The position numbers and the translations under genes were made by a program. A DNA stretch of 58,159 nt from Methanobacteriota archaeon. Its GTDB lineage: Archaea > Thermoplasmatota > Thermoplasmata > Methanomassiliicoccales > UBA472. Shown here in pieces: positions 2,276-31,438 of this stretch. Position 1 is the stretch's first letter; the number at the start of each line of letters is the position of its first letter. The stretch covers positions 1-58,159 of the forward strand of contig JAJFUR010000020.1 in assembly GCA_021372335.1 (NCBI GenBank), written 5' to 3'. The notes below the pieces were generated by a model. The model searched no databases, was not told the origin of the DNA, and saw only the letters and a program-made list of their open reading frames with translations.

Positions 2276-2360
2276 ACCTGGTTGCGAACGATTAATGCAG
2301 ATATAATACTTACCCCGTTTAGAAAGACTGGCATTAACGATTGGATGGTGCAAGCTATAT

Positions 2361-2386
2361 ATGGATGGATTATATATCCATCCTAT
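2361..2386. promoter_or_regulatory. TATA-centred inverted repeat GGATGGAT-TATAT-ATCCATCC in the divergent atwA / wHTH promoter region
   Basis: Read directly: 8-bp arms at 2363-2370 and 2376-2383 flank TTATATAT. It lies between the atwA start (2275, minus) and the wHTH gene start (2391/2397, plus). Confidence 0.55.
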
Positions 2387-2390
2387 AATG

Positions 2391-3350
2391 CCAATGTCCT
2401 TCAATTCCTACTTTGCGGGAGGCCCAACGCCTAAGTTCAGCGCCTATCACATCTGGAAGGCCCATCAGGTCGTGGCCAAGGACGGCCCCATCGGCAGGAA
2501 GGCCCTGGCCGAGGCCCTCCAAATAGGGGAGGGGAGCACCCGGACCATCCTGGACAAGATGATGCGCGAGGGTTCGGTGGAAAGCTCCCGCTTGGGGATC
2601 ACCATCACCGAGCGGGGGAAGCGCAAGCTCGACACCTCGGGGATGGAGGTGCGGCAGGTCGACCTGTCCGACCTCACCCTGGGCAAGTTCAACTGCGCCG
2701 TGCTGCTCAAGGGGGCCGCCGACCGCGTGCGGTTGGGGTGCGAGCAACGGGACGAGGCAGTGCGGGCCGGGGCCGTGGGGGCCACGACCCTGGTCGTCGA
2801 CCAGGGCCGAATAGTCTTCCCCGGGGACGAGGAGTTCCCGGACCAATCGCTGGTCGCCCCTTTGAAGAACTACTTCCGGATGGACGATGGGGATGTGATA
2901 ATTATCGGCTCCGCCTTCAGCTATGATGTGGCGGAGAAGGGGGCGGTGACCGCCGCCCTCGCCCTGAGCAACCTGTCCCGCCGCTGCTGGAACGAGGGCA
3001 CGGAACTCTTGAGCCGGGACACCGAGGCGGATGAGCTGCGCTGCCTGGCGCTCGCTGTCCATGAACTCCTGGGCCGCCTGCCGGTCACAATGCGCAGCCG
3101 GAACAGGCCGGGGGTGCGCTGCGAGGAGGGGGAGGTCATCGACACCCACTACACCGGCCCAATGCTGGAGGAGGCCATGAAACGGGGCGCGATCGTCCGG
3201 CGCGTTTCCACCAGCGGTCCTTACCGGGGGCTGCCTGTCATAGCCGTCCCGATCATGCGCAAGCGGGAGGCCATCGCGGCCATCGCCACGATGGACATCG
3301 GCAAGGGGTCGCTGTCGGAGCTGCTCGCCAAACTGGCGGAGCGGTACTAG
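2391..3350 (+). CDS. winged-helix domain protein, function unknown (DUF4443-like impression, unverified)
   Basis: The ORF is 2361..3350. Its first 8 codons are the palindrome itself, so ATG 2391 or 2397 is preferred. The N-terminal segment is HTH-like (GRKALAEALQIGEGSTRTILDKMMREG). It is divergent from atwA-mcrC. TAG stop. Confidence 0.6.
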   Translation, partial: PMSFNSYFAGGPTPKFSAYHIWKAHQVVAKDGPIGRKALAEALQIGEGSTRTILDKMMREGSVESSRLGITITERGKRKLDTSGMEVRQVDLSDLTLGKFNCAVLLKGAADRVRLGCEQRDEAVRAGAVGATTLVVDQGRIVFPGDEEFPDQSLVAPLKNYFRMDDGDVIIIGSAFSYDVAEKGAVTAALALSNLSRRCWNEGTELLSRDTEADELRCLALAVHELLGRLPVTMRSRNRPGVRCEEGEVIDTHYTGPMLEEAMKRGAIVRRVSTSGPYRGLPVIAVPIMRKREAIAAIATMDIGKGSLSELLAKLAERY

Positions 3351-5176
3351 AAATAATACCATATGCTCTCATACTCCCGCACGTCCTCTCCCCTCTCCGC
3401 AAGGGCGATCAGGAAGTCCAGGATCGGCACGTCCATGTGCACATAGGTAGGCGCTACGGCAATGTTCTTCTCCCAGGGATGGAACTCGTACACGCGCTCG
3501 CCCCTTGGGGTAATGGCGATCAGGTCGTGGTGCTGCCACGCCCGCAGATGGTTCTTTCCCAGCGCCGGGATGTTGAACACCGGTTCGTCCGTTCGGCTCA
3601 GGCCAGGTAGTAGCCTTGCCTCCTCCTTGCGCTCCTGGAGGAGCCTTGATATGGGCACCCTGTACTCGGACGTCTCCTCCTTCCCCTTGGCATTGAAGGT
3701 GTAGTAGGGGTCCACTCCGATCCTTTTAAGCGTCGAGCGCACCGCCACCGTCTCGAAGCGACGGCAGTTCTCCATAGTGAACACCTGTTGATTGTAGACG
3801 GAAATGCCAAGCGTTCGCAGGGAGCGCACGGCCTCGGCCGCTTCCGGGGTCACTTCATATGGATGCTCGAAATGGGTCACGAGCGCGAACTCCCTTCCGG
3901 GGGGATCATGGACCGCCGCCATTAGGTCAAGGAAGCCGGGGTCGATCCTCATTGGCATGACCACGGGCACCCTGGTGCCCAGCCGCAGCCTTCGTACGTG
4001 CGGTAGCTCCATCAACCTTCCCAGAAGTCTCCTGAGATGCCCGTTCGAGAGCACTCCTGGGTCCCCTCCCGTGATCAGGACCTCGCTTACCATCGGATGG
4101 TCCCTGAACCAGTCCAAGGCGGCCTCGATCTTCTCGGGCGGGGCCATGGCGTCGGGGGAGAGGACCCCTTCGATCTCCCAGTTCCGCTGGCAGTAGACGC
4201 AGATCTGGGCGCAGGTGTTGTACGGCTTGAATATGGCGATCATGGGGTACCGCCGCGTGACCAGGTCCACGGGGGAGGTCTGCCCCTCCCGCATGAAGTC
4301 CAGGGTGGCGGAGGGATCCGCCCTGGCCTTAAGTATCCCGTGGATGTAGTTGAGCGGTGGGATGACCTGCGCCCGCACCGCATGGTCGAGGCGCCGGGAA
4401 GGCTCCCTATCCATGAGGGAGAGGTAGTAAGGGGTTATTCCGAACGGGATGCGGTTCTCCCCGCAGAGGCGGATGGCCTCGCGCTCCGAGTCCGTCAGCT
4501 CGATGAGGTCCCCTATTACCTCCTCGCTCAAAAGGACGTTCCTCATCTGCCATGGATAGTCGTTCCAATCGTCCAATGTGGCGTTCAGGTGGTCCAGGAT
4601 CCGCTCGCGGTTCTTCCTGCGCCGCTCTATGACGCTGGGCTCGAGGCCGCTGACGTAACGAGATGCCTTTGCCTCCACCGCCTTGGCCAGGCCGTCGAGG
4701 TAGTCTGAGCGCCGCCGGCTTCCTTCCCTTTCGTCCATAACAGTGAGATCGGGGGCCTCCTGAAGCGCTAGCACTGGTGCCCCTGTGGTGCCCTTCATGA
4801 TGTGCAATATATCGTGGACGAAGGCGGGGTGAACATCGCCACATCCATCATCCTGCTCGAGGCAGAGGAGGTGGTGAACCACCGAAGTGCCGCTCACCCT
4901 TTCGTTCCTGGGGGAGAGAAAGTTGCGCATCACGCGGAGGCAATGGAGCGCGTTCGACCTTTCCAGGGCGTGTATCTGGCAGTCCCGGGCGTGTAGCCTG
5001 CTTTCCCTTTCATGGAGAATGGCCATTATGTTGTGGCGAGCGGCCTCGATGTCCTTGGAGGCTTGAAGGGCCTCATGCAATTGAGGGTCGCTCATCCAGA
5101 GCAGGGCGCGGGCCTCGGCGGTATCAAGCTCCGGTCCCTGGGGGAAAGCTGCGTCTGATAGCTTCGTGGTTTGCAT
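3347..5176 (-). CDS. KamA-family radical SAM / PLP aminomutase-like protein with a long N-terminal extension
   Basis: The ORF extends to 5242. The ATG at 5176 has a GGTGA Shine-Dalgarno-like element 5 nt upstream. It carries the CxxxCxxC cluster motif CAQICVYCQRNWE, ITGGDP, and a candidate PLP lysine in NIPALGKNH. About 200 aa N-terminal to the core resemble nothing I recognise. Confidence 0.75.
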   Translation of the reverse strand: MQTTKLSDAAFPQGPELDTAEARALLWMSDPQLHEALQASKDIEAARHNIMAILHERESRLHARDCQIHALERSNALHCLRVMRNFLSPRNERVSGTSVVHHLLCLEQDDGCGDVHPAFVHDILHIMKGTTGAPVLALQEAPDLTVMDEREGSRRRSDYLDGLAKAVEAKASRYVSGLEPSVIERRRKNRERILDHLNATLDDWNDYPWQMRNVLLSEEVIGDLIELTDSEREAIRLCGENRIPFGITPYYLSLMDREPSRRLDHAVRAQVIPPLNYIHGILKARADPSATLDFMREGQTSPVDLVTRRYPMIAIFKPYNTCAQICVYCQRNWEIEGVLSPDAMAPPEKIEAALDWFRDHPMVSEVLITGGDPGVLSNGHLRRLLGRLMELPHVRRLRLGTRVPVVMPMRIDPGFLDLMAAVHDPPGREFALVTHFEHPYEVTPEAAEAVRSLRTLGISVYNQQVFTMENCRRFETVAVRSTLKRIGVDPYYTFNAKGKEETSEYRVPISRLLQERKEEARLLPGLSRTDEPVFNIPALGKNHLRAWQHHDLIAITPRGERVYEFHPWEKNIAVAPTYVHMDVPILDFLIALAERGEDVREYESIWYYF

Positions 5177-5326
5177 AGGTCTCACCTTTGCCGCCCATAC
5201 CGAACCGAAAAGGAAATCGTCCCGAGGAGCGACGCTATTCATCAGGACCCCATCTTACTTATTATTTGCCCACTCCGAGCGTTTCCGAAGGATATGATTA
5301 TCTGACTTGAGCGCGATCGAGGGGGG

Positions 5327-6897: not shown

Positions 6898-7179
6898 TCA
6901 ACCGCTCCCGCTCGGGGTCACGGTGGAGATGTCCGCCACGACCTCTTCGGTCAGGCCTTGCATCTCCCCCAGGACCACCTTTCGGGTCCTTTCCTTGTAG
7001 GAGGTCCGCTTGTACTCGTCCTCGGATGCGGGGTCCAGGAGACTGGTTACGTACCAGAGGTCGTAGGTGTCGAGCAGAGCCCATTCCACCCCGTCGCGCT
7101 CCCGTACCTCCAGCACCTTTCCCACCGTCCCGGTGACGCGGTATTTTGCGAACTCCCCTACTTGCATCGGACACCTCAC
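6898..7179 (-). CDS. small conserved-looking hypothetical protein trailing mcrA
   Basis: 93-aa ORF starting right after the mcrA stop. An alternative ATG at 7167 gives [21 protein letters not shown]... It is on the same strand and tightly packed with mcrA. Confidence 0.5.
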
Positions 7180-8840
7180 CTAGCAGGGATGATCGCGGTC
7201 CTCTCGCCCATTGGCATGAACTCCCTCAGGCATCCGCGACCGAACTCCTTGGTGATGTTCGCGAAGTCGAAGGGCAGGTTCTTGTCTGCGAAGGCGATCT
7301 TGACCAGCGGGCTGGCCACGAAGGCATCGCCGCGGGCGGCGTGGGGTGCCAATGCGATACCGGTGTATCCGCTCAGGTGGCCCACGTTCATCGCGTAGTT
7401 CGGGTAGTTCGGACCGCGCAGCTCATGCGGTAGGCCCTCGTCGCTCCTGTAGGAGAACGAGTTGGCCGCCCCGCATTCGTCCTGCAGGTCGTATCCGTAG
7501 AACCCGAGCCTTCCTAGCCTCTCCCGGTGCTGATACATCGACAGGTACCAGCCATTGATCCCTGCGTTGGCGTTACCGGTGGCGAAGGCCACACCTATGC
7601 CGGTGGCGGCCGCTGCGACGGTGGCCCTCTGGGACCCTCCGAAGTGCGCCTCCATTGCGGCCGGGTAGCGCTCGTACATCTCCAAGGCGTAGGAGTTGAT
7701 CTCGGAGCCGAGCTTCTCGATCAGCTCGGTGGAGGGTTTGGACTTGCAGAACCCACCGTACTTCTCCTTGATGTGGTCCACGGCCCAGTAGGTGTAATCC
7801 TCCAGGATGTTGTCGGTATAGGCGGCGGTGGCATACTGAGTGAACCCGACGCCCCCGGACATGTAGGACCCGAGGTATATCTGGTCCAGAATCACCGCGC
7901 CCAAAGCGACAGCCTCCAGGGAGGCTCTAGCAGGGTCATCCGGCTTGGTCCTGGTGGACTGCACGCAGTCCGCCAGCACACCGAACGGGAGTCCACCGGG
8001 CTCGTTGGGGCCCCTGGCCCTCCTGGCGGGCATCATGGTGGCCATCTCCACCATCGCGGCATGCTTGGCGGCGAAGGCGAAGTCCGCGATCGCGGCCTCG
8101 CCGGCTGCCAGCCTGTAGGCGGTGATGAAGGCCATGGAGATCTGCATCGCCGAGTGCCTGGAGACCGTGGCTCCGTCGCACACGCGGCCGACAATGGTCG
8201 GGACGCGCACTACCTGCCACAGCTTCTTACCGACCGCGGCCTTCAGCTGCTTGGCCTGGTCCGCGGGGAACTCCTTGTTGATGTCGATGACGAAGCACTT
8301 GTCGATCTCGTCGATGAGCTCGTCGTCCCCGGAGAACACCTTGACGTAGGAGTCCTTCACGATCTCGGGGCATAGCTCGGCCATGTGCTCCTGCACCACT
8401 GCGCCGCCTGGCATGGTGTGGTTGACAGCCTCCAGGTAACGGTTGATGGTCTCGGGGGTGACCTCCTTCGACAGCCTCTTCTCGATGACATTGTGGGCGA
8501 CGTCCAGACCGACGATGACGGTCCTTCGTATGTCATCCCACGCCTGCTGCATCGCAGCGTTGTTCACAAAGTGCAGGTCATCGGCCTCGCCATAGATGTC
8601 GGTGTGGGACAGCTGGTAGGGCATCAAGACCCTCTGGCCGAGCGCGACACCGATATCCTGGTTCATCATTGGGATCCCGCGCTCCTTGGCGATCCTGTTG
8701 GCCTGCTCGACCCACTCCCGCTTCCTCTTGGACTGCCTCCAGCCCCCATAGGAGTAGTGTTTGGAGCGGACCTCCGTGGGGTCCTCCTTGAACTTCTTCT
8801 TCATGGCGGCGATGAACAGCTTATCCTTTTCCTTCGCCAT
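7176..8840 (-). CDS. mcrA: methyl-coenzyme M reductase alpha subunit
   Basis: 554 aa. Diagnostic blocks are [37 protein letters not shown] and [18 protein letters not shown]. Confidence 0.97.
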
Positions 8841-8842
8841 AT

Positions 8843-9625
8843 TTAGTCCTCCTTAACATCGAAGGGCTTGAAGCCGCACTTCGTTCTCAAGGTGTGGATC
8901 CTGAGGTTCTGCCTCATGACCTCCTCGTCCTCCCTCATGTCGACGCCATCGGCGCGGAACATGGCGGTGTGCTCCTTCAGCCACTTCTCGGGCATGGGCT
9001 TTCCGACAGGGACCGGCTTGTCCAGCGGGACACCCACCTGGTCCTTGACGTACTCCACCTCACCCTTCTTGGCGTTCCACCGGAACCTCTGCCAGGCATC
9101 GAACATCAGCCCGTTCTCGTCCAGCCTCACGGCGTGGCCATGCACGGTGGCGCCTCTGATACCGGTCCTCGCGGTATCGAAGGTCTCGCTGTCGATGAGT
9201 TCCTTGGCCACCTTCTCGACGTCCCTCTCCCTCATCTCGATGATCTGCCTTCCAGATAGGGTACCGGTGTCAATCCCTCTGTACCTCCACATGTACATCT
9301 GCGCCCTAACATACGGAACTATGGGGGCCCAGTATACGGAGTCAGTGAACTGAACGTACCTGATCCTGTCTCCCTTCTTAGCACCTTCTGTGGGCTCGAC
9401 GATTGCCCTTATGGGGCAGTCGGGCTCGTTGCCCTCCTCCAGCGGCGGGTGGATGGTGGCGTAGTCGGAACCGGGGACCCTGTGCCCCAGGATCTTGACC
9501 ACGTCGTCCATCGGAATGTCACGGAGCTTCTCCAGCTTGACGCTGGGGTCCATGAAGCGCCTGCGGTTCTTGGCGGGCAGGGTGGTGCCAGGATAGAATT
9601 GTGCCTTATACTTTGTCTTAGCCAT
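8843..9625 (-). CDS. mcrG: methyl-coenzyme M reductase gamma subunit
   Basis: 260 aa. The N-terminus [27 protein letters not shown] and its position between mcrD and mcrA fit McrG. Confidence 0.93.
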
Positions 9626-9626
9626 G

Positions 9627-10049
9627 TTACTTCACCAATCCTTTCATGTAGTCTGTAGTAGTGGGCCTGAACTTGTTGTAACGACCTACCTCCAATGTGA
9701 ACCCGAAGGGTAGTACTTCCTTGCATACCGCCTCGATGTCCTTCAGGGCCTGCGGCACATGGTCGATGTCGCTTATCTCAACGAATATGCGCCCGACCTG
9801 GACCGTAAGCTCGACCTCCTTTCCCTTGACCTTGATCTTCTTGCGCTCGGGATGGTCCACCGGACCGCCAGTGCCAGGACCGGACTTCATAACCGCCGGT
9901 AGCCCCTCGCCCTGGATGTTTATCTGTCGAACGTTCTTTATGTCATACAATCGGTTCAGCAGCTTTTCGGTGGTGCTTGCCATCAAAAGTCTTTCCGGGA
10001 AGATCTGGATCTCCGGAAGCGGGACTCCCTCGGAGGCAGGTGCACTCAT
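9627..10049 (-). CDS. mcrD: methyl-coenzyme M reductase operon protein D
   Basis: 140 aa. It contains [10 protein letters not shown]...[22 protein letters not shown] and lies between mcrB and mcrG. Confidence 0.85.
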
Positions 10050-10051
10050 GT

Positions 10052-11380
10052 TCAGACCAGCTCCTTCAGCCTCTTGGCCTCCTTACCGACCATCTTCATA
10101 GGGCTCTTGAACTCGTCAAGCTTGCCGAACACCTCACCCATGATGAGGGATGTGTTCTCAGCGCTGAAGTACTGCGTACCAGCGTCCAGAGCGCATCCGG
10201 CAGCGATAACGGGCACAACCGTTCCCTTGGCATGCCTGGTAACGACGTGGTTCCCATGGAACAGCCCCGGGCCGCCCCCGCCATAGATCGAGTGGCTGAA
10301 GAAGGACATGCCGACCGAGGTCCCCATGGCCCTCCCATAGTCCACACCGGGCAGGCTCGTCTCGTGCTCGATCAGGTCGTTGTAGTACAGGATCGTGGAT
10401 GGAACGCCCTGCGCAGCCCTTGCGGCACCGATGTTCACGCATATCGCGGCGAGCATACCGGCGGAGATGTAGGCATTCCACAGCGGAAAGTCGTTGGTGG
10501 TGTACTCAACGAATCCGGACGGATACTTCTTACCCTTCTTTATGACCTTGTCCTCCAAGGCGGTCCCGACCACGGAGGCGACGACGTCTCCGACGGTGCC
10601 GGTCTTGCCATTCTCCTTGACCCAGGTATAGACCATGTTGTTGCCGTTCAATCCTTGGTAGGCCAGGGACAGCAGGTGTTGTCTCTCGAAGTTGCCGATG
10701 GCATCGCCCATCTCATAGGCCGCGACGGTCTCATAGATCGAAGACAGAGCGGCCGCGTTCATCGCGTTCCTTCCCGTCAGCATGACTATGTGGTTGGCCA
10801 TGATGTTCCTGAGCGCGTAGCCAGTACCCTCGTTTAACTGCGGAAGGTCCAGGATGGATTTCAGGTTCGAGCCCGCCATACCTATGGTCTGAGGATATCT
10901 GCCCCAAACGGCGGCCTTCACCATCGAGGCCTCGAACATGCCCACATCGAACATGTCGATGATCGCCTCCGTAAGGGCGGCAGCGACGGCGGTGAATCCG
11001 TTGGTGTACTCGGCCCCAGTGTCGATCCTGGCGCTCGGGCACATCGCAACCATCCTCTTCCCGTCCGCCATGACCTTGATCTCGGTGTCATCGTCCTTGG
11101 AGACCTTCAGTGTGTCCTTCAACTTCTTGGCCAGCTTGTCCGCGTTCGCCACTATCGCGAGCTCCATGCCCCTTCCGGGGACGTTCAGTCCACCAACCGC
11201 TCCGGTCTTGAGGCTCTTCTCAATACCCTCGAGGTTGACAGCGATCGTCCTCTTGGTCAGGGAGATGGTTCGCATAATGGCGCCGTTGTTCAACGGACTG
11301 ATGGCGTCCAGAGGCACATCCCTTTCAATCAGCTTGCCTCTGTCGTCATACAAGTCCACTTTGTCCTTGTATTTTGCCAT
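10052..11380 (-). CDS. mcrB: methyl-coenzyme M reductase beta subunit
   Basis: The ORF runs to 11467. The ATG at 11380 ([17 protein letters not shown]..., 443 aa) has a GGAGGT element 8 nt upstream. The N-terminus is typical of McrB. Confidence 0.95.
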
Positions 11381-11493
11381 TTTATACCTCCTTTTCAATA
11401 GCTCGGTCCCCTCAAGTAGATTCAGCATCGATCTTGAGAAAACCGGTACCCCTTGCGGACTCGACAATGTTAAGTTAGAATATAAGCTTGATG

Positions 11494-11514
11494 ATGGATG
11501 GATAATCCATCCAT
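11494..11514. promoter_or_regulatory. perfect palindrome ATGGATGGAT-A-ATCCATCCAT upstream of mcrB
   Basis: Read directly. It lies 114 bp upstream of the mcrB ATG. On the mcr strand a TATA-like CTTATATTC (11478-11486) lies just downstream of it. Confidence 0.6.
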
Positions 11515-11519
11515 GTTAA

Positions 11520-11663
11520 ACAATAGCTTAATTTGAGTCGTGTTCCAGACAAAAATGCATCTGTTTTAACATCCTAAATTTTTTTTAATATTATTTATAG
11601 TTAATATAAATAATGTTTCATTATTAATTTATTTTTCAATTGTTCTTATAATATTGATCCCCG
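11520..11663. promoter_or_regulatory. AT-rich island between tfuA and the mcr operon
   Basis: About 145 bp that are visibly more than 75% A+T within a GC-rich genome. It contains several TATA-like runs and a T8 tract. Confidence 0.4.
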
Positions 11664-12302
11664 TCATTCGCTCATCTTTTTTAGATGTCTCAGGACGGCT
11701 ATTGCGTCCTCCTTCTTAACATCTCGGTAGTTCTCCGCGAAAAACCGGTCGAAACCCTCCGCCCTAATGTCCCCAAGGACCTCCCTTGCGATGCCGAGGA
11801 AGGCGGGGATGGTCCTCCTGGGATAATAGAGGGAGCGAAGGCGGCCCAGCATCGCTCCTCTCTCTCCATCGGAAATCGCGCCATGGCTGAGCGCCTCGTC
11901 CAGAAGGCAACGGAGGTTCACCATTGGTTCCGAAAGGGGCTGTAAGGTTTCGGGATCGAAGACTAGGGCGACCTCGTCATCCCCCTCGATCGTTCCCGTC
12001 GAATAGAGTTCGTAGATCCTTCCCACGCCAATCATTCCATAGGGTCTCAGCTCAGCGGCTCGCAGGGCCCCCATGCTCCCACCGCCGACAACGCCCACGC
12101 CGCGGTTCAGGAGGGCCATGATCTCACGGTGCCCTACGGAGCAATGCTGAAGGAAGACACCGTCTATGATGCCGATCAACCTAGCGCCCGCCACATGGCC
12201 TAGGTCTCCCCGCTTCACCGGAGGGCGGTAGTCCGCATCTAGGATCTCGTATGCCTCCTGCCAAGGGAGGCTTGGCCCCAGGAATACCACTGGCCGGGTC
12301 AT
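11664..12302 (-). CDS. tfuA: TfuA-like protein (partner of YcaO in thioamidation)
   Basis: 212 aa. The N-terminus RPVVFLGPSLPWQEAYEILDADYRPPVKRGDL is typical of TfuA. It shares a 4-nt ATGA overlap with ycaO. Confidence 0.85.
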   Translation of the reverse strand: MTRPVVFLGPSLPWQEAYEILDADYRPPVKRGDLGHVAGARLIGIIDGVFLQHCSVGHREIMALLNRGVGVVGGGSMGALRAAELRPYGMIGVGRIYELYSTGTIEGDDEVALVFDPETLQPLSEPMVNLRCLLDEALSHGAISDGERGAMLGRLRSLYYPRRTIPAFLGIAREVLGDIRAEGFDRFFAENYRDVKKEDAIAVLRHLKKMSE

Positions 12303-13492
12303 GCGCCCAGCCTTGGACCTGTCCGGTCCATGTCCATTGCGTAGATCTCCATCCCCGGGATCACCATGCGCACGACCGGAATCCCTAGTTCTGGGCGGGT
12401 AAGGTCGACCGCTATCACCCTCTCGAAGCCGAGAGAGTCCAGGCGTTCGAGGACGACCTCGATGTCCTCCAAAAGGTCCTTGGTATCGCGCTCAGGGAAG
12501 CTGGACAGGGGAACCTCCTTGGATGGGGAAAAGTACATCGCGTTCAGCCGTTTCATCCTCTCATAGCCCACCGTCCGGTTCAGGTCCGCCTTTACGGTGT
12601 CCTCCCTGGCCCCATGGATCTGCGTGCATCGGCTCTGCGCCACCTCGGTGAGGGCGCGGATGGCCGCTACCCTGGGACTGAGATGGGTCCCTACGCCCAG
12701 GTTCAACAGGGCTGGGTCCTTCAGGCGCACATCGTCCGCCGCGGCCGCAATGGTTGGGACCCCGACATCGCTTGTGAGGTCCTTAAGATGCACGTCCACC
12801 CCCTGCGCATGGAACTTCTCCAATAGCTCCGAGACGACTGGGCAGCCCTCCTCCACTTGGATATCGTTCAAAGGCCTCCTCCTAGCTTCGCATATGGACC
12901 AGGCATCTCGTTCGATGACCTCGCAGATGCCGTGCAGGACCGCTTCCTCAATGGTGTTCCCGGACGCCAGGCCGTTGGTGTTGCTCCTGAAGAGCTGCAG
13001 GTCGCTCTGGGACTGATAGGGATGGAATACGGCGGCCGCCGGGACCCAGATCTCCTCGCCCTCCATAAGGTCGAACCCCTTGATCCATGCGATCGGATGG
13101 TAGTGCACGTGCACGTTGATCATCTGCGGCAGGATCAGGGCCCGCGGGTCCACGGCGTTCTCCGAGGACAGCATGTCGTCCATCAACTCCCTGCGAAGCT
13201 TATCGTCGTGGTACTCGGCCGAGTACCTTTCCATCGCCTCCATGATCGCGGAAACCTTGGCCTGTTCTCGGCTCGCCCCCTTGCCGTTGTAAATCGAAAT
13301 CGCCCCCTCCTTCGCCCCCGGACGAATGCTGGAGAAGACCGGGATCCCTATGCGGTCGAGGTCGGTTATATCCGCCACGCGCGTAATGCCGGCCTTAGGA
13401 AGTAGGGGCTCCACCCTCCTCAGCGTCGCCTTCGGGCCTATGGCGCGATGGCCGTCCTTGGTGTAGGTCTTGGGGACCGGTCGCAGTTCCAT
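12299..13492 (-). CDS. ycaO: YcaO-family protein (McrA glycine thioamidation type)
   Basis: 397 aa. YcaO-like blocks include AMERYSAEY and TNGLASGNTIEEA. It is translationally coupled to tfuA and sits directly upstream of mcr. Confidence 0.85.
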   Translation of the reverse strand: MELRPVPKTYTKDGHRAIGPKATLRRVEPLLPKAGITRVADITDLDRIGIPVFSSIRPGAKEGAISIYNGKGASREQAKVSAIMEAMERYSAEYHDDKLRRELMDDMLSSENAVDPRALILPQMINVHVHYHPIAWIKGFDLMEGEEIWVPAAAVFHPYQSQSDLQLFRSNTNGLASGNTIEEAVLHGICEVIERDAWSICEARRRPLNDIQVEEGCPVVSELLEKFHAQGVDVHLKDLTSDVGVPTIAAAADDVRLKDPALLNLGVGTHLSPRVAAIRALTEVAQSRCTQIHGAREDTVKADLNRTVGYERMKRLNAMYFSPSKEVPLSSFPERDTKDLLEDIEVVLERLDSLGFERVIAVDLTRPELGIPVVRMVIPGMEIYAMDMDRTGPRLGA

Positions 13493-13529: not shown

Positions 13530-14018
13530 TCATCCCCTTTCCTTGGACTCGTGGGCATCGGTCATGGGAAGCGCCAGGTCGAACATCGCGTCCTCGTTGA
13601 TCGGAATCCTCTCGATGAGGATGTCCACCTCCACCCTTTGAACGTTAGGGATGCCGACAATCTTGTCCTGGATCAGGTCATAGAGCGCGTCAACGCTGGT
13701 AGAGTAGACCTCGCAAATGAGAGAATGGTCCCCGAACACCTTGTAGGCATATTGAATGCCAGGGAATCTCTTCAGTTCCTCTATGACCGCACTGAGAGGC
13801 CCCCCCACCACCTGCAGGGCGATCAGGGCTCTCATCAACCCGAGCTTTCCGATGTTCACCCGCATGGTGTATGCGTTGACGTACCCCTCCTCTTCCAATC
13901 GGGCGATACGCCTGCTCACCGTGGCCTTGGAAATACCAAGCTGGTCCCCGATGGTCCCCAGGCTTTCCCTAGCGTTCTTCCTTAATAACCTGAGGATCCG
14001 AAGGTCGATGAGGTCCAT
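13530..14018 (-). CDS. Lrp/AsnC-family transcriptional regulator
   Basis: The ORF runs to 14129. ATG 14018 gives 162 aa. It has an HTH segment (DLRILRLLRKNARESLGTIGDQLGISKATVSRRIARLEEEGYV) followed by a RAM-like C-terminus. Confidence 0.85.
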   Translation of the reverse strand: MDLIDLRILRLLRKNARESLGTIGDQLGISKATVSRRIARLEEEGYVNAYTMRVNIGKLGLMRALIALQVVGGPLSAVIEELKRFPGIQYAYKVFGDHSLICEVYSTSVDALYDLIQDKIVGIPNVQRVEVDILIERIPINEDAMFDLALPMTDAHESKERG

Positions 14019-14082
14019 GGCATTTCCTGCAAATCGGTTACATAGATACGATTGGCTGATGCAATATATGGACCTTTGTTTC

Positions 14083-14107
14083 AAAAAACGATGAAAAATA
14101 AAAAAAA
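14083..14107 (-). terminator. clustered oligo-T tracts after the DUF169 gene
   Basis: A6, A5 and A8 runs on the plus strand are T-runs on the coding strand. They lie 18-43 nt downstream of the stop at 14126. Confidence 0.35.
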
Positions 14108-14125
14108 CGTTGAGCGGTAAGGTTC

Positions 14126-14866
14126 TCATCCGCTCTTGATCTTACCCTTTTCCCGGGCGGGTTTAAGCCTTTGCAAGGCTTGGACGATCGCCTCGAGCTT
14201 GGTCGCAGGGATGCCTACCAGCATCTCGGTGGGCTCTAGGTCGGTCGCTTTGCGGCACCCATAGCATCCTATGGACACGCTGAGCGTGCCGGTGAGGTAT
14301 GGATATACGGTGGAATAGGCGCAGCTCGCCTGGAACGTTTCCATCTCAATGAGCATCTTGCCGCCCTCGAAGTATTTGGCTGCGACCGGTACAAGCCAAT
14401 AGAGCTGCTCTGGGGTCCCGGTGACGATCACCACATCCGGGGGTATCTCCGCCTTGCTGAGCGGGGACACCGCGGTAGCGATGACGTCCCCCATCTCCAG
14501 TTGGGGGCGCTCCTCTATCATTCTCCTCGCCGCTTCCTGGTTGGCGAACATGCCCAGGTTGAAGTGGAACTCCCCGCTCCTCACCTTGTCCGGGATGGGC
14601 ACCATCCCGAGCGCCGAGGCGCCCACATGGCACGCGTGCTTATCCGGTGTCAGCAGCAGCTTCTCCCCTTTCCTGGCCCTCATGACGGACTGGCAATGGC
14701 GTATGTTCTTTTCCGGGATCTCGTACCCCTTGGGCAACTGTTGCCCCTTCCTCACCAGTGTGACGGCTACTGGCTCTGTCTTCAGTTCTAGCACGTCCAT
14801 GATGATGCGGGAACAGTTGGCGTAATCGGTCATGATGATATCGAGGGGGTTGCTGGTTTTTAACAT
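14126..14866 (-). CDS. DUF169-like protein
   Basis: 246 aa. The overall pattern (LELKTEPVAVTL...HCQSVMRARKGE...ACHVGASALG...) matches my memory of DUF169 proteins. Confidence 0.65.
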   Translation of the reverse strand: MLKTSNPLDIIMTDYANCSRIIMDVLELKTEPVAVTLVRKGQQLPKGYEIPEKNIRHCQSVMRARKGEKLLLTPDKHACHVGASALGMVPIPDKVRSGEFHFNLGMFANQEAARRMIEERPQLEMGDVIATAVSPLSKAEIPPDVVIVTGTPEQLYWLVPVAAKYFEGGKMLIEMETFQASCAYSTVYPYLTGTLSVSIGCYGCRKATDLEPTEMLVGIPATKLEAIVQALQRLKPAREKGKIKSG

Positions 14867-24607: not shown

Positions 24608-24776
24608 ACGCGTGTTAATTAAAATTCGCGGTCGTTTCATTGGGCGAAGGAGATGCCAGCGTCTGTGGAATTAACTCGTGTTAATCGATGTCCTGGATGC
24701 TTGCACCCCCGATAGATTAATGTACGGTAAAAATGATACTTGGGACAGGTCAGATTCCTACTGGACTATAGGGGGA

Positions 24777-25799
24777 ATGAATTTGCCTGAAAAATTGACT
24801 CCAAGGGAAAGAGTATTGGACGCCCTTAAGGGCAAGAAGCATGACAGGCCGCCGGTCGCGGTTTTCACCCAGAGCGCAACCATGGGACAGATGGACGCCC
24901 TCGGCGTCTCCTGGCCGGATGCCCATTACAACGCGGACCTTATGGTCAAGCTGGGCGCTGGCCAGGCCAAGGTCTTCGGGTTCGAGGCCGTTCGGGCGCC
25001 GTTCTGCCTGACGGTTGAGGCCGAGACCCTGGGAATGACCGTTGACAAGGGCCGCAAGGACAGGACGCCTATGATAAAGGGGCACTCCTTCCAGATGGAG
25101 GACGAGCCTAACCTCATGGACGTCAAGACCTTCCTGAAGAGCGGCCGGGCTGCCATATGCCAGGAGGCCATAAGGAAGATGAAGGCGACCTATGGGGCCG
25201 AGTACCCGATCATCGCCGGCAACACCGGCCCGTTCACCCTGGCCGGGCACATGGTCGGTACCGAGAACCTCGTGCTGTACATCATGGTGGACCCAGACCT
25301 GGTGCACAAGTGGGTTAAGGCCGTCAACGTGATATGCACTGGATACAGCCAGGCTCTGGCCGATGCCGGAGGGGACGTGGTCCAGATGTCCGAGCCCTCC
25401 GCAAGCACCGATCTGCTTTCACCGGAGATGTTCGATGAGTACGCTGGCGCCTACGTGAAAGGGTCCCTGGCCCCCGTAAAAAGGGCGACAGGTGTACTAC
25501 ACATCTGCGGGAATACCACCCCCATCCTCAACAACATGATCAACACCGGCGTGAAGGCCCTCTCCATCGAGGAGAAGGTCGTTCCCGAGGAGGCGGTCAA
25601 GATCGTCAACCACCGGGCAGCCCTGATAGGGAACGTTGGCGTCGTCAACCCGCTGCTCCAAGGAACCCCGGCGGACGTCATGGCCCATGGCAAGCGCTGC
25701 GCTGCCGCCGGCTTCGACGTGGTGTCCCCGGGATGCGGGCTGTCCGCCCTCATCTCGAACGACAACCTGGCCGCGCTGGTCAAGGCCGTCAAGGGCTAA
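24777..25799 (+). CDS. methylcobamide:CoM methyltransferase (MtaA/MtbA-type MT2)
   Basis: The ORF starts at 24678. ATG 24777 (MNLPEKLTPRERVLDAL...) is preferred, giving 340 aa. It has LHICGNTTPIL (HxC) and SPGCGLS. Confidence 0.8.
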   Translation: MNLPEKLTPRERVLDALKGKKHDRPPVAVFTQSATMGQMDALGVSWPDAHYNADLMVKLGAGQAKVFGFEAVRAPFCLTVEAETLGMTVDKGRKDRTPMIKGHSFQMEDEPNLMDVKTFLKSGRAAICQEAIRKMKATYGAEYPIIAGNTGPFTLAGHMVGTENLVLYIMVDPDLVHKWVKAVNVICTGYSQALADAGGDVVQMSEPSASTDLLSPEMFDEYAGAYVKGSLAPVKRATGVLHICGNTTPILNNMINTGVKALSIEEKVVPEEAVKIVNHRAALIGNVGVVNPLLQGTPADVMAHGKRCAAAGFDVVSPGCGLSALISNDNLAALVKAVKG

Positions 25800-26911
25800 G
25801 CGCCCTCAAAACCTCTTTTCTTTCCATTTCTTTCTCTCACCCGTCCATCCTCGTCATAGTATCTCTTCTTGAACCACAGCGCCAGGTTCACCAGGCTTAT
25901 GAGGGCGGGGACCTCGACCAACGGCCCGACCACGGCCGCTAACGCCACGTCCGAGCCGATCCCGAAGACGCCGATAGCCACCGCGATGGCGAGCTCGAAG
26001 TTGTTGGACGACGCGGTGAAGGACTGCGCGGCGGCATGCGGGTAGTCGAACCTCAAGCGGATGGAGATGGTGAACGAGAGGAGGAACATTATTATGAAGT
26101 ACACCAGAAGGGGGAGGGCGATGCGCAGCACGTCCAGCGGGAGCTGGACGATGTACTCGCCTTTCAAAGAGAACATCACAACGATGGTGAAGAGGAGCGC
26201 CAGCAGGGACACCGTCCCCATGACCGGCATGAACCGTCTATCGTACCACTCCGCCCCTTTATAGGGACGGAGGAGGCGACGGGTCAGCATCCCTCCGAAG
26301 AACGGGATCCCCAGGTAGATCAGCACCGTCTCGGCCACCTCCATAACGGTGATGTCGACCTCCACTCCAGAACCTGGGACCAGGAAGTCTGAGAGCACGA
26401 AGACGAGGAAATAGGCGTAGAGGGCATAGAGCGCGATCTGGAACAGGGAGTTCAGGGCCACGAGGACGGCCGCGTACTCAGTGTCCCCCTCGGCAAGCTG
26501 GTTCCACACGAGCACCATTGCGATGCAACGGGCGATGCCGGTGAGGATGAGCCCGATCCGGTACCCGGGATGGTCCGGAAGGAATATCCAAGCTAGGGCG
26601 AACATCAGCAGCGGGCCGACGATATAGTTCAGGGACAGGGAGACGGAGAACATCCGGCGGCTCCCGGGCATCCTGAGCAGTTCGGGAAGGTCCTCGTACC
26701 GGACCTTGGCCAGGGGAGGGAACATCATCAGGATCAGCCCGACCGCGATGGGAATGGAGGTCGTTCCAATGCTCAACGAGCTGAGGGCATCGGCCATACC
26801 AGGAACGACGGTGCCTAGGAGCACTCCGATGAACATTGCCAAAAATATCCACAAGGTCAGATAGCGATTAAGGAAAGGAAGGCCTGTCGTAGTTCCGCTC
26901 AGGGCGGTCAC
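25796..26911 (-). CDS. acr3: ACR3-family arsenite efflux transporter
   Basis: 371 aa. It has FLNRYLTLWIFLAM and MMFPPLAKVRYE and is polytopic. GTG start, TAG stop. Confidence 0.85.
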   Translation of the reverse strand: MTALSGTTTGLPFLNRYLTLWIFLAMFIGVLLGTVVPGMADALSSLSIGTTSIPIAVGLILMMFPPLAKVRYEDLPELLRMPGSRRMFSVSLSLNYIVGPLLMFALAWIFLPDHPGYRIGLILTGIARCIAMVLVWNQLAEGDTEYAAVLVALNSLFQIALYALYAYFLVFVLSDFLVPGSGVEVDITVMEVAETVLIYLGIPFFGGMLTRRLLRPYKGAEWYDRRFMPVMGTVSLLALLFTIVVMFSLKGEYIVQLPLDVLRIALPLLVYFIIMFLLSFTISIRLRFDYPHAAAQSFTASSNNFELAIAVAIGVFGIGSDVALAAVVGPLVEVPALISLVNLALWFKKRYYDEDGRVRERNGKKRGFEGA

Positions 26912-27077
26912 CCTCTATCAATAGAGTAGTTCAAAATATATTGAAATATTTTGCTAAGCCCCCCTATGGCAACCGTCGAGCAACTTTCGTCCCGTGCCCA
27001 TCGGCCGCCGCTCGCCTGCCGACCGGGATGAGCGATGGATGCCTTGGAAGGAGGGGACCGTCGCATCCTGGGTTGCG

Positions 27078-29042
27078 TTACTTCCCCTTTCTGACCGCGG
27101 GATCGCCGGTCGCCCGGGCCACGATGTCCACCCAGGCGGTCTGCTCACCCTCGACGTTATCGCCCCCGTAGAACTTGTTCTCGTAGACGTCGCTGCGGAC
27201 CTTGATGTTCTCGGCCCCTGCCTCGTATGCGCGGTTCCACACGTACTCCTCGGCCTGCCGCCGGGCGGATGATATGGCCTGCTCCACATGACTGTACGTA
27301 CCGGTCGAGCCGAAGGGACCGAGGACGTAGAAGACGTTGTCCATATTGGGATAGACCTGGGCGGTGACGGTCTCGGAGATCTTACTGCATACCGCCCCGA
27401 CGGCGTTGCCGACGTCGTGGTCCCTTGGAATGACCACCCTGACGTCCATGCGCTTCTCGAGCGGGGGCATGTAGATCGGGGTCGGCGCCCCTATCCCGAC
27501 CAGTGGCCGGTCCAGTCTGGTCCTGAGGACCAAGCTGCTTCCCTGGTTCCCATTGACCGTGGCGCGGAGGAGATAGTTGAAGCCTGGACCGTCCGGCATC
27601 TCCCCCGATTCGTCGAGGACGATCTTCCTCATTACCTCCTCTCCGACCCGGGTAACGAACTCCTGCTGGAAGGACTCCAGGCATTCCCCGACGGTCGTAT
27701 GGGTCCGATCGGCGATGAACTGCACGCCCAGCCGGGCCGCCTCCACATCGAAGCGGGTGAAGTGGCCCTGCACGTGCATGAAGTCCGTGGCGGTGAGCCC
27801 CGTCATCTGAAGGAAGCCGCGGTCCTTGAGATGCTTGACCACGTCCCGATATGTATACACCTCGGGGGCGCCGCGCCTGATCTCCTCCAGGGTGCAGAGC
27901 GGGTTGGCCTTGACGAACTCGTACACCTCCTTCTCCTTAGGGGAAAGCTTGGCCGTCCCCCTCTCCACAGGAAGGTAGTAGTTGGTCTCGCCAGTGGCGC
28001 CCATCCTCTCCCTCAGCCGGGGATGGGCGACCGAGGCCACGGCCAACGGCACCACCCGCTCCGGCCCGATCTTGAAGTTGCCCCTCTGATCGGGGACGAC
28101 ATGCGAGTCCCCGCCCAGGCCCACGGTCCAGATGTCTATGGCCCGGACCCTGGTCCGCCAATGGCCGACGGTCGCCCCCTCCTTGGAGATGCGTGGGAAG
28201 CCATCATCCAGGAAAGCGATGTCCGTGGACGTGCCCCCGATGTCCACCACGATGAAGCTATCCTCCTTGCTGAGCAGCTTGGCGCCCATCAGGCTTGCGG
28301 CCGGCCCGGACAGGATGGTCTCCACGGGGCGCTCCCGGGCCTTCTCGATGCTCATGAGGGTCCCATCCCCCTTGAAGACCAGGATCGTGGCGTCGATGCC
28401 CCTCTCCTTCAGGGAGCGCTCCACCCCGTCCAGGAACTCGGATATGACCGGTAGCAGCCTTGCGTTGAGCACAGCGGTGACGCTGCGCTCCGGCACACCG
28501 AGCTGAGAGGTCAGATGATGGCCCAGCACGACCGGCAGGCCGGTCCGTTCCTTGATGGTGCGGGCCGCCTCGATCTCATGGGCGGGGTTGTACACGCTGA
28601 AATGGCTGGAGACGACGAAGGAGTCGACCTCTCCCTTCATTCTTTCTATGGCCTCCTCGAGCGCGTTGGTGTCCAAGGGGGCGAGTTCCTGGGCCCATAC
28701 CCCGTGCCCCCCCTTGATATAGGCATCCATGTCCGCCCCCGAGCGGAACCCGGGCGTCGGGGTCCATCCGATCCCTATATGCCCAACCTTGCCGCCCTTC
28801 CCGGTCAAAATGGAATTGGTGGCGAGGGTCGTGGAAAGCCCTACGAACTGGATCTCGCTTCGCTCACATTCCTCGCACTGCAGCACATCGTCGATCGCCT
28901 CCAGGACCCCGATGGCCAGGTCTTGGTACGTGGTCTGGGCCTTGCCCTTTGCCAGGACCTCCAGGCTCTCCATGTCCACGATCGCCGCATCGGTGTATGT
29001 GCCCCCAGTATCAAGCCCAAGTCCAAGCTTCCTGGTCGCCAT
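27078..29042 (-). CDS. hydantoinase/oxoprolinase-family (HyuA-like) protein
   Basis: 654 aa. It has an ASKHA phosphate-1 motif (GLDTGGTYTDAAIV) and a second one (VVDIGGTSTDIA). Confidence 0.75.
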   Translation of the reverse strand: MATRKLGLGLDTGGTYTDAAIVDMESLEVLAKGKAQTTYQDLAIGVLEAIDDVLQCEECERSEIQFVGLSTTLATNSILTGKGGKVGHIGIGWTPTPGFRSGADMDAYIKGGHGVWAQELAPLDTNALEEAIERMKGEVDSFVVSSHFSVYNPAHEIEAARTIKERTGLPVVLGHHLTSQLGVPERSVTAVLNARLLPVISEFLDGVERSLKERGIDATILVFKGDGTLMSIEKARERPVETILSGPAASLMGAKLLSKEDSFIVVDIGGTSTDIAFLDDGFPRISKEGATVGHWRTRVRAIDIWTVGLGGDSHVVPDQRGNFKIGPERVVPLAVASVAHPRLRERMGATGETNYYLPVERGTAKLSPKEKEVYEFVKANPLCTLEEIRRGAPEVYTYRDVVKHLKDRGFLQMTGLTATDFMHVQGHFTRFDVEAARLGVQFIADRTHTTVGECLESFQQEFVTRVGEEVMRKIVLDESGEMPDGPGFNYLLRATVNGNQGSSLVLRTRLDRPLVGIGAPTPIYMPPLEKRMDVRVVIPRDHDVGNAVGAVCSKISETVTAQVYPNMDNVFYVLGPFGSTGTYSHVEQAISSARRQAEEYVWNRAYEAGAENIKVRSDVYENKFYGGDNVEGEQTAWVDIVARATGDPAVRKGK

Positions 29043-29091
29043 GGATCATCCCAGGGGACAATGGCATCGACGATATATGATTATTACACCC

Positions 29092-30453
29092 TCAGAGAAG
29101 GAGGGCGAAGGGCAGCATGAGGACGGAGAAGAAGGCGGCGGCCGTGCCGGCCACCTTGAGCGCCCTCACGCCCTCCGGCCTAGCCTGGCAGAGCAGCGCC
29201 AGCGACGCCAGGAGCGCCATTTGCGCACCCCCCATCAGAACGTACCTTTCCCTGACGCCCCCGAGATCGTCGATGCGGAGATCCCCGGCCAGGACCATTA
29301 CCGCCAGTCCCTCGAGGGCGATCACCGTCAGCGAAAGGAGGGAGAGCGCGGAGACGACGAGCTTTGCCCTTCCTCCCAGCCTCGGGCTGTCTCGAATGAT
29401 CCACATGGACAAGGCTACCACTGAGAGGGCGAGCAGCTGCGCTCCGGCAAGCCGGAAGGTTCCCTCCAATATCCCTCCGATGCCCTCGATGTGGGTGTTC
29501 GCCGCGAGGGCCATTGCGAAGACGCCCTCGAAGGCCAGCATCGCCATCGAGGCGGCCGCTATGAATTGGACCAGGGACCGGCGGTCGAGCCTCTCAAGGC
29601 TGAGCTTCCATAAGATGGGTGAGACCAGCCCCAGGGCGAACAGCTGGGCGATGCCCGCTACAACGTACCCTTTGGTGGCGTTGCCGGCGCCGGCAACGGT
29701 CACCGAGCCTGCCACAGTGGAGACGGCGACCGCGGCGGCGGCGACCAAGCCCCCGAGCACGCCCATGACGGGCAAGGCCCAACCCAGCCCGATGCGCTTT
29801 TGAAGGCGGGGAGCAGCCCAGGGATCGCTGGTGATCGTCCAAACGAGAAAGATGAGGGCCCCGAGCAGGAAGAGCCCTGCTCCGGCATACACCATCGTCC
29901 TTTCCAGGACCGTTCCGAGGCCAGTGATGGTGGCGTTGCCCGCGATCCCTATTGCGGTTAGGCCCTCCAGCATAAGCATGGCGGAGGCCAGCGAGCCCAG
30001 GGTGTCCGCGAGCCAATTGACCGGGCGGATGTCCCTTAGGCGCCACAGCCTCAGGGAGAGGACGGCGATGGCGAAGAGCTGCGCCCCTATCAGGACGATC
30101 CATTTCTTTCCAACGCCCCCGAAGCCTTCCACGTTCACGTTCCCGGCGATGAGGACCATGACCAACCCCTCCATGGCCAATATAACCATGGCCAGATAGG
30201 TGAGGAGGTCGAACAGTCTGACCAGCACTGTTCGCCTCGGCTCGGGGAAGGCGATCTTCAAGGCCCACATGGCCCCAATGAAAATGCCGAGGGCCGTGAG
30301 TTGAGCGGCCGCTAGTGTGAATGTGGAGGCGAGGATGGTACCGAGGCCCTCTATGCTTGCTTGAGCAGCGATACTGAGGGCGAAGAGCCCCTCGAAGATG
30401 ATGGTCCAGCTCAAAAGCGTTCCGAGCAATGTTCGGCTGGTGATTCCCCTCAT
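29092..30453 (-). CDS. polytopic membrane protein built from six tandem ~70-75-aa repeats
   Basis: 453 aa. The motif (F/L/M)EG(L/V)x5-6(A/L)A(G/A)Nx3(E/T/D)GxG...GAQLxAL recurs six times; the fourth copy is degenerate. Confidence 0.7.
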   Translation of the reverse strand: MRGITSRTLLGTLLSWTIIFEGLFALSIAAQASIEGLGTILASTFTLAAAQLTALGIFIGAMWALKIAFPEPRRTVLVRLFDLLTYLAMVILAMEGLVMVLIAGNVNVEGFGGVGKKWIVLIGAQLFAIAVLSLRLWRLRDIRPVNWLADTLGSLASAMLMLEGLTAIGIAGNATITGLGTVLERTMVYAGAGLFLLGALIFLVWTITSDPWAAPRLQKRIGLGWALPVMGVLGGLVAAAAVAVSTVAGSVTVAGAGNATKGYVVAGIAQLFALGLVSPILWKLSLERLDRRSLVQFIAAASMAMLAFEGVFAMALAANTHIEGIGGILEGTFRLAGAQLLALSVVALSMWIIRDSPRLGGRAKLVVSALSLLSLTVIALEGLAVMVLAGDLRIDDLGGVRERYVLMGGAQMALLASLALLCQARPEGVRALKVAGTAAAFFSVLMLPFALLL

Positions 30454-30507
30454 CTCTTCCCCCTACCCTCCCAGTTACCAATTTCCTGATTTATACAACT
30501 TGTGCAA

Positions 30508-31428: not shown

Positions 31429-31438
31429 GCGAAGCCCT

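Follow-up and report, generated by a model that had tools for sequence, protein, structure and literature searches.

The 58,159-nucleotide stretch of Methanomassiliicoccales DNA analyzed here (contig JAJFUR010000020.1, about 60% guanine plus cytosine (GC); hereafter the window) carries a palindrome in the region between two divergent genes: atwA, encoding component A2 of methyl-coenzyme M reductase (MCR), and a gene for a protein with a winged helix-turn-helix (wHTH). The same motif recurs in front of the mcrBDGA operon and of a gene for a methyltransferase-cognate corrinoid protein. We propose that the palindrome is the operator of a Methanomassiliicoccales-specific transcription factor, most likely the neighboring wHTH protein (encoded at 2388-3350), a reading to which we give a probability of roughly 0.6. 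Comparison across the order indicates that the palindrome is functionally constrained and marks a conserved, order-wide predicted regulon of methanogenesis that includes mcr.

At the wHTH gene, the palindrome is a perfect 8-bp inverted repeat whose arms, GGATGGAT (2363-2370) and ATCCATCC (2376-2383), are separated by the 5-bp spacer TATAT (2371-2375). A first-pass annotation of the window, made by a model that saw only the letters and the open reading frames, had placed the element at 2361-2386, which takes in a few flanking bases, and had proposed a motif common to three loci; both the palindrome and its recurrence proved to be real. With up to three mismatches allowed, the pattern has 6 matches in the 58-kb window versus 0.63 expected, and none of 100 shuffles reached 6. 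All six lie in three intergenic regions (at 2363, 11492-11516 and 32136-32191). The exact core TGGAT-N5-ATCCA, located at 2366-2380 (center 2373) in the wHTH promoter, occurs five times in the 58 kb and is confined to the promoters of the wHTH gene, mcrBDGA and the corrinoid-protein gene, all three of which belong to methanogenesis; the looser GGAT-N5-ATCC has a mean of 0.65 and a maximum of 4 occurrences in shuffles. A weight matrix scan gave scores of 16-33 at the three loci, the next best position of the window scoring 3.6 and the shuffle maximum being 13.4. This matrix was built from related sites and is circular by construction, the score gap nevertheless being clear.

Two collections of related loci were used to follow the motif through the order: 80 species-level loci from GTDB genomes (L001-L080, 1.22 Mb) and 80 metagenome loci found with the corrinoid protein of the window as query (L081-L160, 0.38 Mb). 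In the former, perfect GGATGG-Nx-CCATCC was found 40 times with N5 and 38 times with N9, any other spacing occurring 0-2 times; all these sites lie at wHTH or mcrB promoters, except for one N9 site inside the atwA coding region of L004. In the latter, exact TGGAT-Nx-ATCCA was found 36 times with N5 and 33 times with N9 (other spacings at most 5), the N9 class being a consequence of the tandem repetition of GGAT. All sites share the unit TGGAT-N5-ATCCA, with an additional GGAT repeat next to it on one side or on both. The half-site centers of this unit are 10 bp apart, which suits the geometry expected of a dimeric helix-turn-helix protein. Among the 75 loci with enough sequence upstream of the wHTH gene, 61 have GGATGG-N9/N5-CCATCC (at most two mismatches) within 70 nt of its start, and 55 the exact TGGAT core pair at this promoter. 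The divergent neighbor within 700 bp is atwA in 47 of 64 loci, the remainder showing mostly frameshifted atwA matches or inserted genes, and the block mcrC-atwA / wHTH ... mcrA-G-D-B keeps its gene order as far as the Methanomethylophilaceae, at protein identities as low as 44%. The linkage of the wHTH gene to the motif and to atwA, which the first-pass annotation had suggested looking for in related genomes, is therefore present.

At 2363-2383, the palindrome separates the start codon of the wHTH gene from a predicted TATA box. Three in-frame ATGs are available (2361, 2388 and 2394). Sixteen homologues (53-86% identity), in a family whose members are mostly 319-321 amino acids long, align from the residue encoded at 2388 (MPMSF versus MSLSF, MPLIF and MVLKF). 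This alignment favors 2388 as the start, and the public gene call (P0001, 329 amino acids, from the ATG at 2361 inside the predicted TATA box and operator) is probably too long. Since an automated scan of TATA distances was noisy, overlapping cores shifting the register by 4 bp, aligned consensus sequences were used instead. Anchored on the palindrome, the consensus of 42 aligned loci reads TtTataT, GGATGGATtATATATCCATCC, 3-4 nt and ATG. A TATA-like box (TTTATAT, TTTAAAT, TTTATGT or TATTTA) always adjoins the palindrome on its upstream side in these loci, and in every clade the box ends 24-27 nt short of the ATG, in N5 and N9 variants alike; in the window, the box at 2355-2362 ends 25 nt before the ATG at 2388. 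In the Methanomassiliicoccus-genus clade, the palindrome is 4 bp shorter (e.g. GGATGGATGCACCATCC) and the gap to the ATG is 8 nt instead of 4, so that the TATA-to-ATG distance stays at about 25 nt. As a calibration of the spacing, the tRNA gene at 40367 was used: TTTATTAA ends there 29 nt short of the mature 5' end, so that the genome of the window follows the usual archaeal distance. Taken together, the TATA-to-ATG spacing and this calibration place the predicted start of wHTH transcription at about 2385-2388, and the mRNA is probably leaderless. The palindrome would then span roughly -22 to -2, its center at about -12 and 14.5 bp downstream of the TATA center.

The arrangement is reversed at the two other loci. 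In front of mcrB, GGATGG-N5-CCATCC lies at 11496-11512 (center 11504), 116-132 bp upstream of the start codon at 11380, and holds two overlapping TGGAT-N5-ATCCA cores offset by 4 bp. The center of the predicted mcrB TATA box, CTTATATT (11486-11479, minus strand), is found 22 bp downstream of the palindrome center. Over 36 aligned loci, the promoter consensus reads aTtgTTta..aT GGATGGattaTCCATCC AtcAtCAagcTTATAT ... gcaaGGGg; it is also given as TGGATGGattaTCCATCCAtcAtCAagcTTATAT. Transcription is predicted to begin on the conserved GCAAGGGG at about 11456, and the 5' untranslated region would then be about 76 nt long. At the corrinoid-protein gene, the motif locus lies 62-117 bp upstream of the start codon at 32074. 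The proximal core (32143-32157, center 32150) is 23 bp upstream of the TATA center, and the center of the distal core (32181) is a further 31 bp upstream. Many of the 80 metagenome loci returned for the corrinoid protein show TGGAT-N5-ATCCATCCAT followed after 4-8 nt by a TATA box (e.g. ...ATCCATCCATAAAAGCCTTTATTTA); those with the motif have 42-97% identity and come from sediment, termite gut, rumen and human gut.

Some further elements were observed around these promoters. The predicted mcrB 5' untranslated region (11380-11456, minus strand) opens with GCAAGGGG and contains a hairpin, CCGGUUUUCUCAAG...CUUGAGGGGACCG, which is kept in relatives through differing sequences (minimum free energy -23.2 kcal/mol, z-score only -1.8); this leader may be an mRNA-stabilizing or regulatory element. 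A second recurrent element was seen in the window and in L001-L080: nearly all loci have ATYGTTTA 3-5 nt ahead of the palindrome at mcrB (11515-11526 in the window). Boxes resembling TTAACGAT are present near the other two motif sites (2334-2343 and about 32205-32215), and CCGTTAA/AACGGGG or CATCTGG boxes directly upstream of the BRE/TATA promoter elements of atwA. The second recurrent element may be the site of another factor.

The first-pass annotation had singled out the protein encoded at 2391-3350, whose start we now set at 2388, as the prime candidate binder of the motif. It is still the best candidate, and binding by this protein is on balance probable. Its N-terminal winged helix matched Pfam PH0730-like_N (PF22167; 48.4 bits versus a cut-off of 30.2) and is followed by DUF4443 (PF14544; 95.4 bits versus 27) and DUF2111 (100 bits); CggR_N (PF21715) reached 29.9 bits, just under its cut-off of 30. 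Residues 98-304 are made up of DUF4443 and DUF2111, with no Pfam match to the SorC sugar-phosphate effector-binding domain. Nor did the protein match the Pfam domains of TrmB; Pfam did not detect DUF1724 in it or in the ArsR-like protein at 30508-31371, and NCBIfam has no model for the 2388-3350 protein. The family profile matched the PH0730 structure (PDB 2p8t) over residues 31-196 (E = 2.6e-20) and, weakly, the DNA-binding domains of CggR/SorC. The AlphaFold2 model aligned to 2p8t with a Foldseek template modeling (TM) score of 0.72, and its winged helix superposed on that of operator-bound CggR (PDB 7oyk) at 0.7 Å over 63 columns (probability 1.0). By sequence and fold, the protein is a PH0730-like protein with an added DUF2111, and belongs to neither the TrmB nor the SorC/CggR family.

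Full-length AlphaFold2 modeling from 16 sequences rendered DUF2111 poorly, which a domain-only alignment remedied (predicted local distance difference test score 92). The best Foldseek matches of this domain model were GAF, SpoVT-C, NreA and Cache (TM 0.47-0.57, E ~1e-3, probability 1.0), with no match at the sequence level; the model is suggestive of a GAF/PAS-like ligand-sensing fold. The DUF2111 family is small, with 79 clusters among 1.84 billion representatives, and named stand-alone members come from methanogens only (Methanocaldococcus, Methanotorris, Methanothermococcus, Methanofervidicoccus, Methanococcus and Methanothrix). A permuted fusion, DUF2111-wHTH-DUF4443, was found in P0131; it is independent of the architecture in the window and argues for a functional coupling of the modules. 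Another protein, P0121, has two tandem DUF2111 domains. The gene context of stand-alone DUF2111 gave no functional hint, with TYW3, DUF2112 and DUF6485 in Methanotorris igneus (L161) and ArgG and GNAT on a Methanothrix-like contig. COG4029 (MMP0337), described as methanogen-specific by Gao & Gupta (2007), is a possible counterpart of DUF2111 to which no weight is given here. A second paralogue of the regulator (46-49% identity) is encoded elsewhere in the genome in L054, L055, L060, L067 and L069, twice near corrinoid genes. None of these second paralogues has the palindrome at its own promoter, and in L069 only CCATCCAT half-sites were found upstream of the corrinoid gene adjoining the paralogue.

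In the mechanism that we propose, the 2388-3350 protein would bind TGGAT-N5-ATCCA as a dimer or as a dimer of dimers. The archaeal repressors MDR1, Phr and TrmB have their operators between the TATA box and the start, while the activator Ptr2, and TrmBL1/Tgr at gluconeogenic promoters, have their sites next to the transcription factor B recognition element (BRE). At its own promoter, the operator would take up the 25 bp that separate the TATA box from the leaderless ATG at 2388, and bound protein would exclude RNA polymerase; an operator in this position is expected to give negative autoregulation. The layout thus fits the autoregulation that the first-pass annotation had proposed, the motif lying at the regulator's own promoter in 61/75 loci. 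At the mcrBDGA and corrinoid/methyltransferase operons, the operator center at about -48, 22-23 bp upstream of the TATA center and next to the BRE, would lead to activation, possibly through recruitment of TBP/TFB. The overlapping registers at mcrB, offset by 4 bp, may constitute a second level of control. DUF2111 is probably the sensor of a small molecule by which binding is adjusted; the domain, GAF-like in its predicted fold, would couple DNA binding to a metabolite. Sequence, conservation, promoter geometry, protein domains and folds, and synteny were observed directly, whereas the binder, the transcription start sites and the ligand are inferred; the direction of regulation, with the regulator's own gene repressed and the mcr and methyltransferase genes activated, is a tentative assignment that we hold at slightly less than even odds. 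A broader and still more tentative proposal is that the winged helix-DUF4443-DUF2111 factor could be a master switch of methanogenesis in the Methanomassiliicoccales, which would sense a metabolite specific to methanogenesis (e.g. coenzyme M, coenzyme B, the heterodisulfide or a methylated substrate), activate mcr and several methyltransferase/corrinoid operons and repress its own leaderless gene.

Several observations weigh against assigning the operator to this protein, or against parts of that proposal. A motif at a promoter marks the gene as a target and not its product as the binder. The Methanomethylophilaceae loci L075-L080 encode the protein but have no palindrome at their mcrB promoters. 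GEGSTRTILDK, the recognition helix, shows no change even in a termite-gut clade and in paralogues with motif-free promoters of their own; no covariation of protein and operator was thus seen across clades and paralogues, and with a helix invariant everywhere the comparison is uninformative. The related loci share common ancestry, so that their counts are not those of independent events. The fold assignment of DUF2111 is limited by its TM of about 0.5 and E of about 1e-3. A literature search on DUF2111, DUF4443, PH0730, the motif, Methanomassiliicoccales promoters and starts, and MMP0337 found nothing on the motif, the protein or either DUF. Finally, the 42 N9-type autoregulatory sites show good conservation of the A/T-rich center of the palindrome (ATATAT); we attribute this to a requirement on spacer shape or to melting of an A/T-rich region just upstream of the start, and it may also reflect a second function in the N9-type clade, e.g. 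a weak extra minus-strand promoter.

A rival explanation is a genuine operator with another binder, be it the ArsR-type protein beside the corrinoid gene (30508-31371), the Lrp/AsnC protein (13530-14129) or the product of some unlinked gene; the wHTH-DUF2111 gene would in that case be a member of the regulon, or its product even a factor of MCR maturation instead of a DNA binder. Both other helix-turn-helix genes lie in the window, the recognition helix and the motif do not covary, some clades keep the protein without the motif at its own promoter or at mcrB, and an involvement in activating MCR would also be consistent with the close conservation of gene order around atwA, mcrC and mcr. We nevertheless regard this explanation as unlikely. 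The motif occupies a classic autoregulatory position at the wHTH gene in most species-level loci (61 of 75), whereas the weight matrix scan found no motif at the promoters of the other helix-turn-helix genes. The N-terminal domain superposes closely on the DNA-bound winged helix of CggR, and its recognition helix is as invariant as the TGGAT half-site.

The first-pass annotation had read the palindrome center TTATATAT (2370-2377) as a symmetric TATA box shared by the wHTH gene, with a leaderless mRNA starting at about 2397-2400, and by atwA, with a leader of about 70 nt, the regulator binding on the shared box. The center does resemble a TATA box by sequence, its conservation at the N9-type sites agrees with such a role, and a minor minus-strand transcript could originate there in the N9-type clade. 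As an account of the two promoters this model is nonetheless improbable. From a center at 2373.5, initiation would fall near 2400, which is not on the second ATG, as had been stated, but downstream of all three and inside the conserved N-terminus; the next in-frame methionine is near residue 58, and its use would delete the winged helix. A separate conserved TATA box directly abuts the palindrome upstream, at leaderless spacing, and in the N5-type orthologues of the Methanomassiliicoccus clade the palindrome center is GC-rich (GCACC, AGACC, GCTCC). On the other side, atwA has its own predicted BRE and TATA box ending 25 nt before its ATG at 2275 (24-26 nt across 52 loci; consensus ggGgaAa.ttttata), so that its mRNA, predicted to start at about 2276-2278, is probably leaderless too, in place of the proposed leader. 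Where the spacer between the two genes has grown to 250-480 bp (L013, L014, L016, L018, L044, L058), or genes have been inserted into it (L042, L048, L052, L057, L059), the palindrome stays by the wHTH ATG and the TATA box by atwA. The mcrB and corrinoid promoters carry this motif upstream of TATA boxes that are distinct from it. The 112-bp region between the atwA ATG (2275, minus strand) and the wHTH ATG (2388) is thus best described as two predicted back-to-back core promoters, with TATA centers about 54 bp apart, and not as one shared symmetric TATA box. Relative to the TATA box of atwA, no full operator was found at the distance of an activator site; the half-site TGGATGG at 2342-2348 is all that is present.

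That the palindrome has no regulatory role, being a chance inverted repeat, a remnant of a repeat element, an RNA hairpin or a terminator, is very improbable: it can form a hairpin and GGATGG is over-represented in the window, but no shuffle reached the observed count, the spacing is strictly selected, lineages whose flanks have diverged beyond alignment still have the element in an unchanged place with respect to the TATA box and ATG, no T-tract follows the palindrome, which lies upstream of the predicted starts and is not expected in the transcript, and it has no match in an Rfam scan whose sole match was the tRNA. The hexamer GGATGG/CCATCC occurs 85 times across the window, whereas shuffles that preserve composition give about 38 (maximum 56); genes hold most of the copies, and codon or dipeptide bias is a possible cause.

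The predicted sites and the genes around them are collected in Table 1. The KamA-family protein (3347-5242, minus strand) has an N-terminal extension of about 210 residues; its gene is convergent with the wHTH gene and overlaps the wHTH stop codon, and only the closest clade (L001-L009, L011, L012, L056) has it at this place, between the regulator gene and mcrA. From the tfuA stop codon to the mcrB operator (11520-11660), about 140 bp are extremely A/T-rich, as is this region in relatives. Beyond the corrinoid gene, the cluster at 24678-32074 encodes the ArsR-like helix-turn-helix protein (30508-31371), a 654-residue hydantoinase_A/ASKHA-like protein (27078-29042), an SBF-family transporter (25796-26911) and a URO-D/MtaA-like methyltransferase (24678-25799); a 453-residue open reading frame at 29092-30453 had no Pfam or NCBIfam match. 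This cluster could be an uncharacterized methyltransferase system for a methyl substrate.

Table 1. Predicted regulatory elements and genes of the window discussed in the text.
Feature	Position	Strand	Basis or remark
Palindromic operator (predicted), GGATGGAT-TATAT-ATCCATCC	2363-2383		Conserved in 61/75 orthologous promoters
wHTH TATA box (predicted), CTATATAT	2355-2362	+	Consensus TtTataT directly 5' of palindrome, 42 aligned loci
atwA BRE/TATA (predicted), AAGTATTATAT	2311-2301	−	Fixed distance, conserved in 52 loci
mcrB-promoter operator (predicted), ATGGATGGAT-T-ATCCATCCAT	11492-11516	minus-strand sequence given	GGATGG-N5-CCATCC (at most 1 mismatch) conserved in 30/39 mcrB upstream regions
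mcrBDGA BRE/TATA (predicted), AAGCTTATATTC	11478-11489	−	Consensus CAagcTTATAT, 36 aligned loci
Corrinoid promoter-proximal site (predicted), TGGATATCTCATCCATCCATCCA	32136-32160	minus-strand sequence given	Conserved in metagenomic orthologues
Corrinoid distal site (predicted), GGATGGAT-TATAC-ATCCATAT	32171-32191		Present in close orthologues L081-L083
Corrinoid-gene TATA box (predicted), GTTTATTAG	32131-32123	−	Predicted start ~32100
mcrC	45-650	−	NCBIfam TIGR03264, 292 bits; divergent from wHTH gene
atwA (MCR component A2)	653-2275	−	NCBIfam TIGR03269, 756 bits; divergent from wHTH gene
wHTH gene, candidate regulator, 320 amino acids	2388-3350	+	Pfam; start set by aligning 16 homologues
KamA-family radical-SAM gene, 631 amino acids	3347-5242	−	NCBIfam
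mcrB-mcrD-mcrG-mcrA operon, putative activated target	7176-11380	−	Pfam MCR_beta; synteny mapping
tfuA	11664-12302	−	Pfam
ycaO (McrA thioamidation)	12299-13492	−	NCBIfam
Methyltransferase-cognate corrinoid protein gene, putative activated target	31439-32074	−	Pfam B12-binding, B12-binding_2; TIGR02370

The predicted system has precedents in its logic. In the Thermococcales, TrmBL1/Tgr acts through the glycolytic motif TATCAC-N5-GTGATA at many promoters of one pathway, activating from upstream of the BRE/TATA and repressing from downstream of the TATA box. The motif described here is likewise an N5 palindrome, placed at about -48 at the mcrB and corrinoid genes and at about -12 at the regulator gene, a likeness in sequence geometry only. 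Unlike TrmBL1/Tgr, the candidate regulator has no TrmB helix-turn-helix or sugar-binding domain; the half-site, the pathway (methanogenesis) and the lineage differ, and the regulation is predicted. In Methanosarcina, the Msr proteins (ArsR helix-turn-helix plus DUF1724) are dedicated helix-turn-helix regulators of methyltransferase genes. MreA, a TrmB-like protein (COG4738) of the same genus, is a dedicated helix-turn-helix regulator of methanogenesis genes (PMC3419521). The wHTH protein would share with Msr and MreA the dedicated control of methanogenic pathway genes by an archaeal helix-turn-helix protein, although the families are unrelated and the order is a different one. To our knowledge, no Msr or MreA protein targets the mcr operon through a shared palindrome.

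The winged-helix domains of CggR dimerize on palindromic half-operators; an effector-binding domain is also present, and the operon that CggR represses contains the cggR gene itself (PMC11229326). By our own reading of the operators as printed, the CggR palindromes have A/T-rich spacers (PMC11229326). CggR of Bacillus subtilis (SorC family; PDB 7oyk, 8r3g) and the candidate regulator superpose in the winged-helix DNA-binding domain (0.7 Å); in the archaeal protein, DUF4443 and DUF2111 replace the SorC domain, the operator sequence is unrelated, and the factor probably also activates. With PH0730 of Pyrococcus horikoshii (PDB 2p8t) it shares the same two-domain module, PH0730-like_N plus DUF4443, to which DUF2111 is added; PH0730 itself has no assigned function or operator, and no characterized member of the PH0730-like family was found in the literature. 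The proposed regulator, a winged-helix protein of archaea that responds to a ligand and acts by position on a palindromic operator, would follow a known logic, with a protein and a motif that appear not to have been described before.

Methyl-coenzyme M reductase catalyzes the last step of all biological methane formation, and we know of no dedicated regulator of the mcr operon. The Methanomassiliicoccales are methylotrophic methanogens of the rumen, the human gut, the termite gut and wetlands. Besides correcting an automated gene start (329 amino acids, inside the TATA/operator region), the analysis provides a set of promoters for genetic tools in this order, comprising a predicted leaderless, autoregulated promoter and leadered, probably activated ones. 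If the proposal is true, it would give a first function to the PH0730-like module, DUF4443 and DUF2111. One predicted operator linking mcrBDGA, methyl-corrinoid operons and a regulator gene beside the genes of MCR activation would define a directly testable regulon and a possible handle on methane output.

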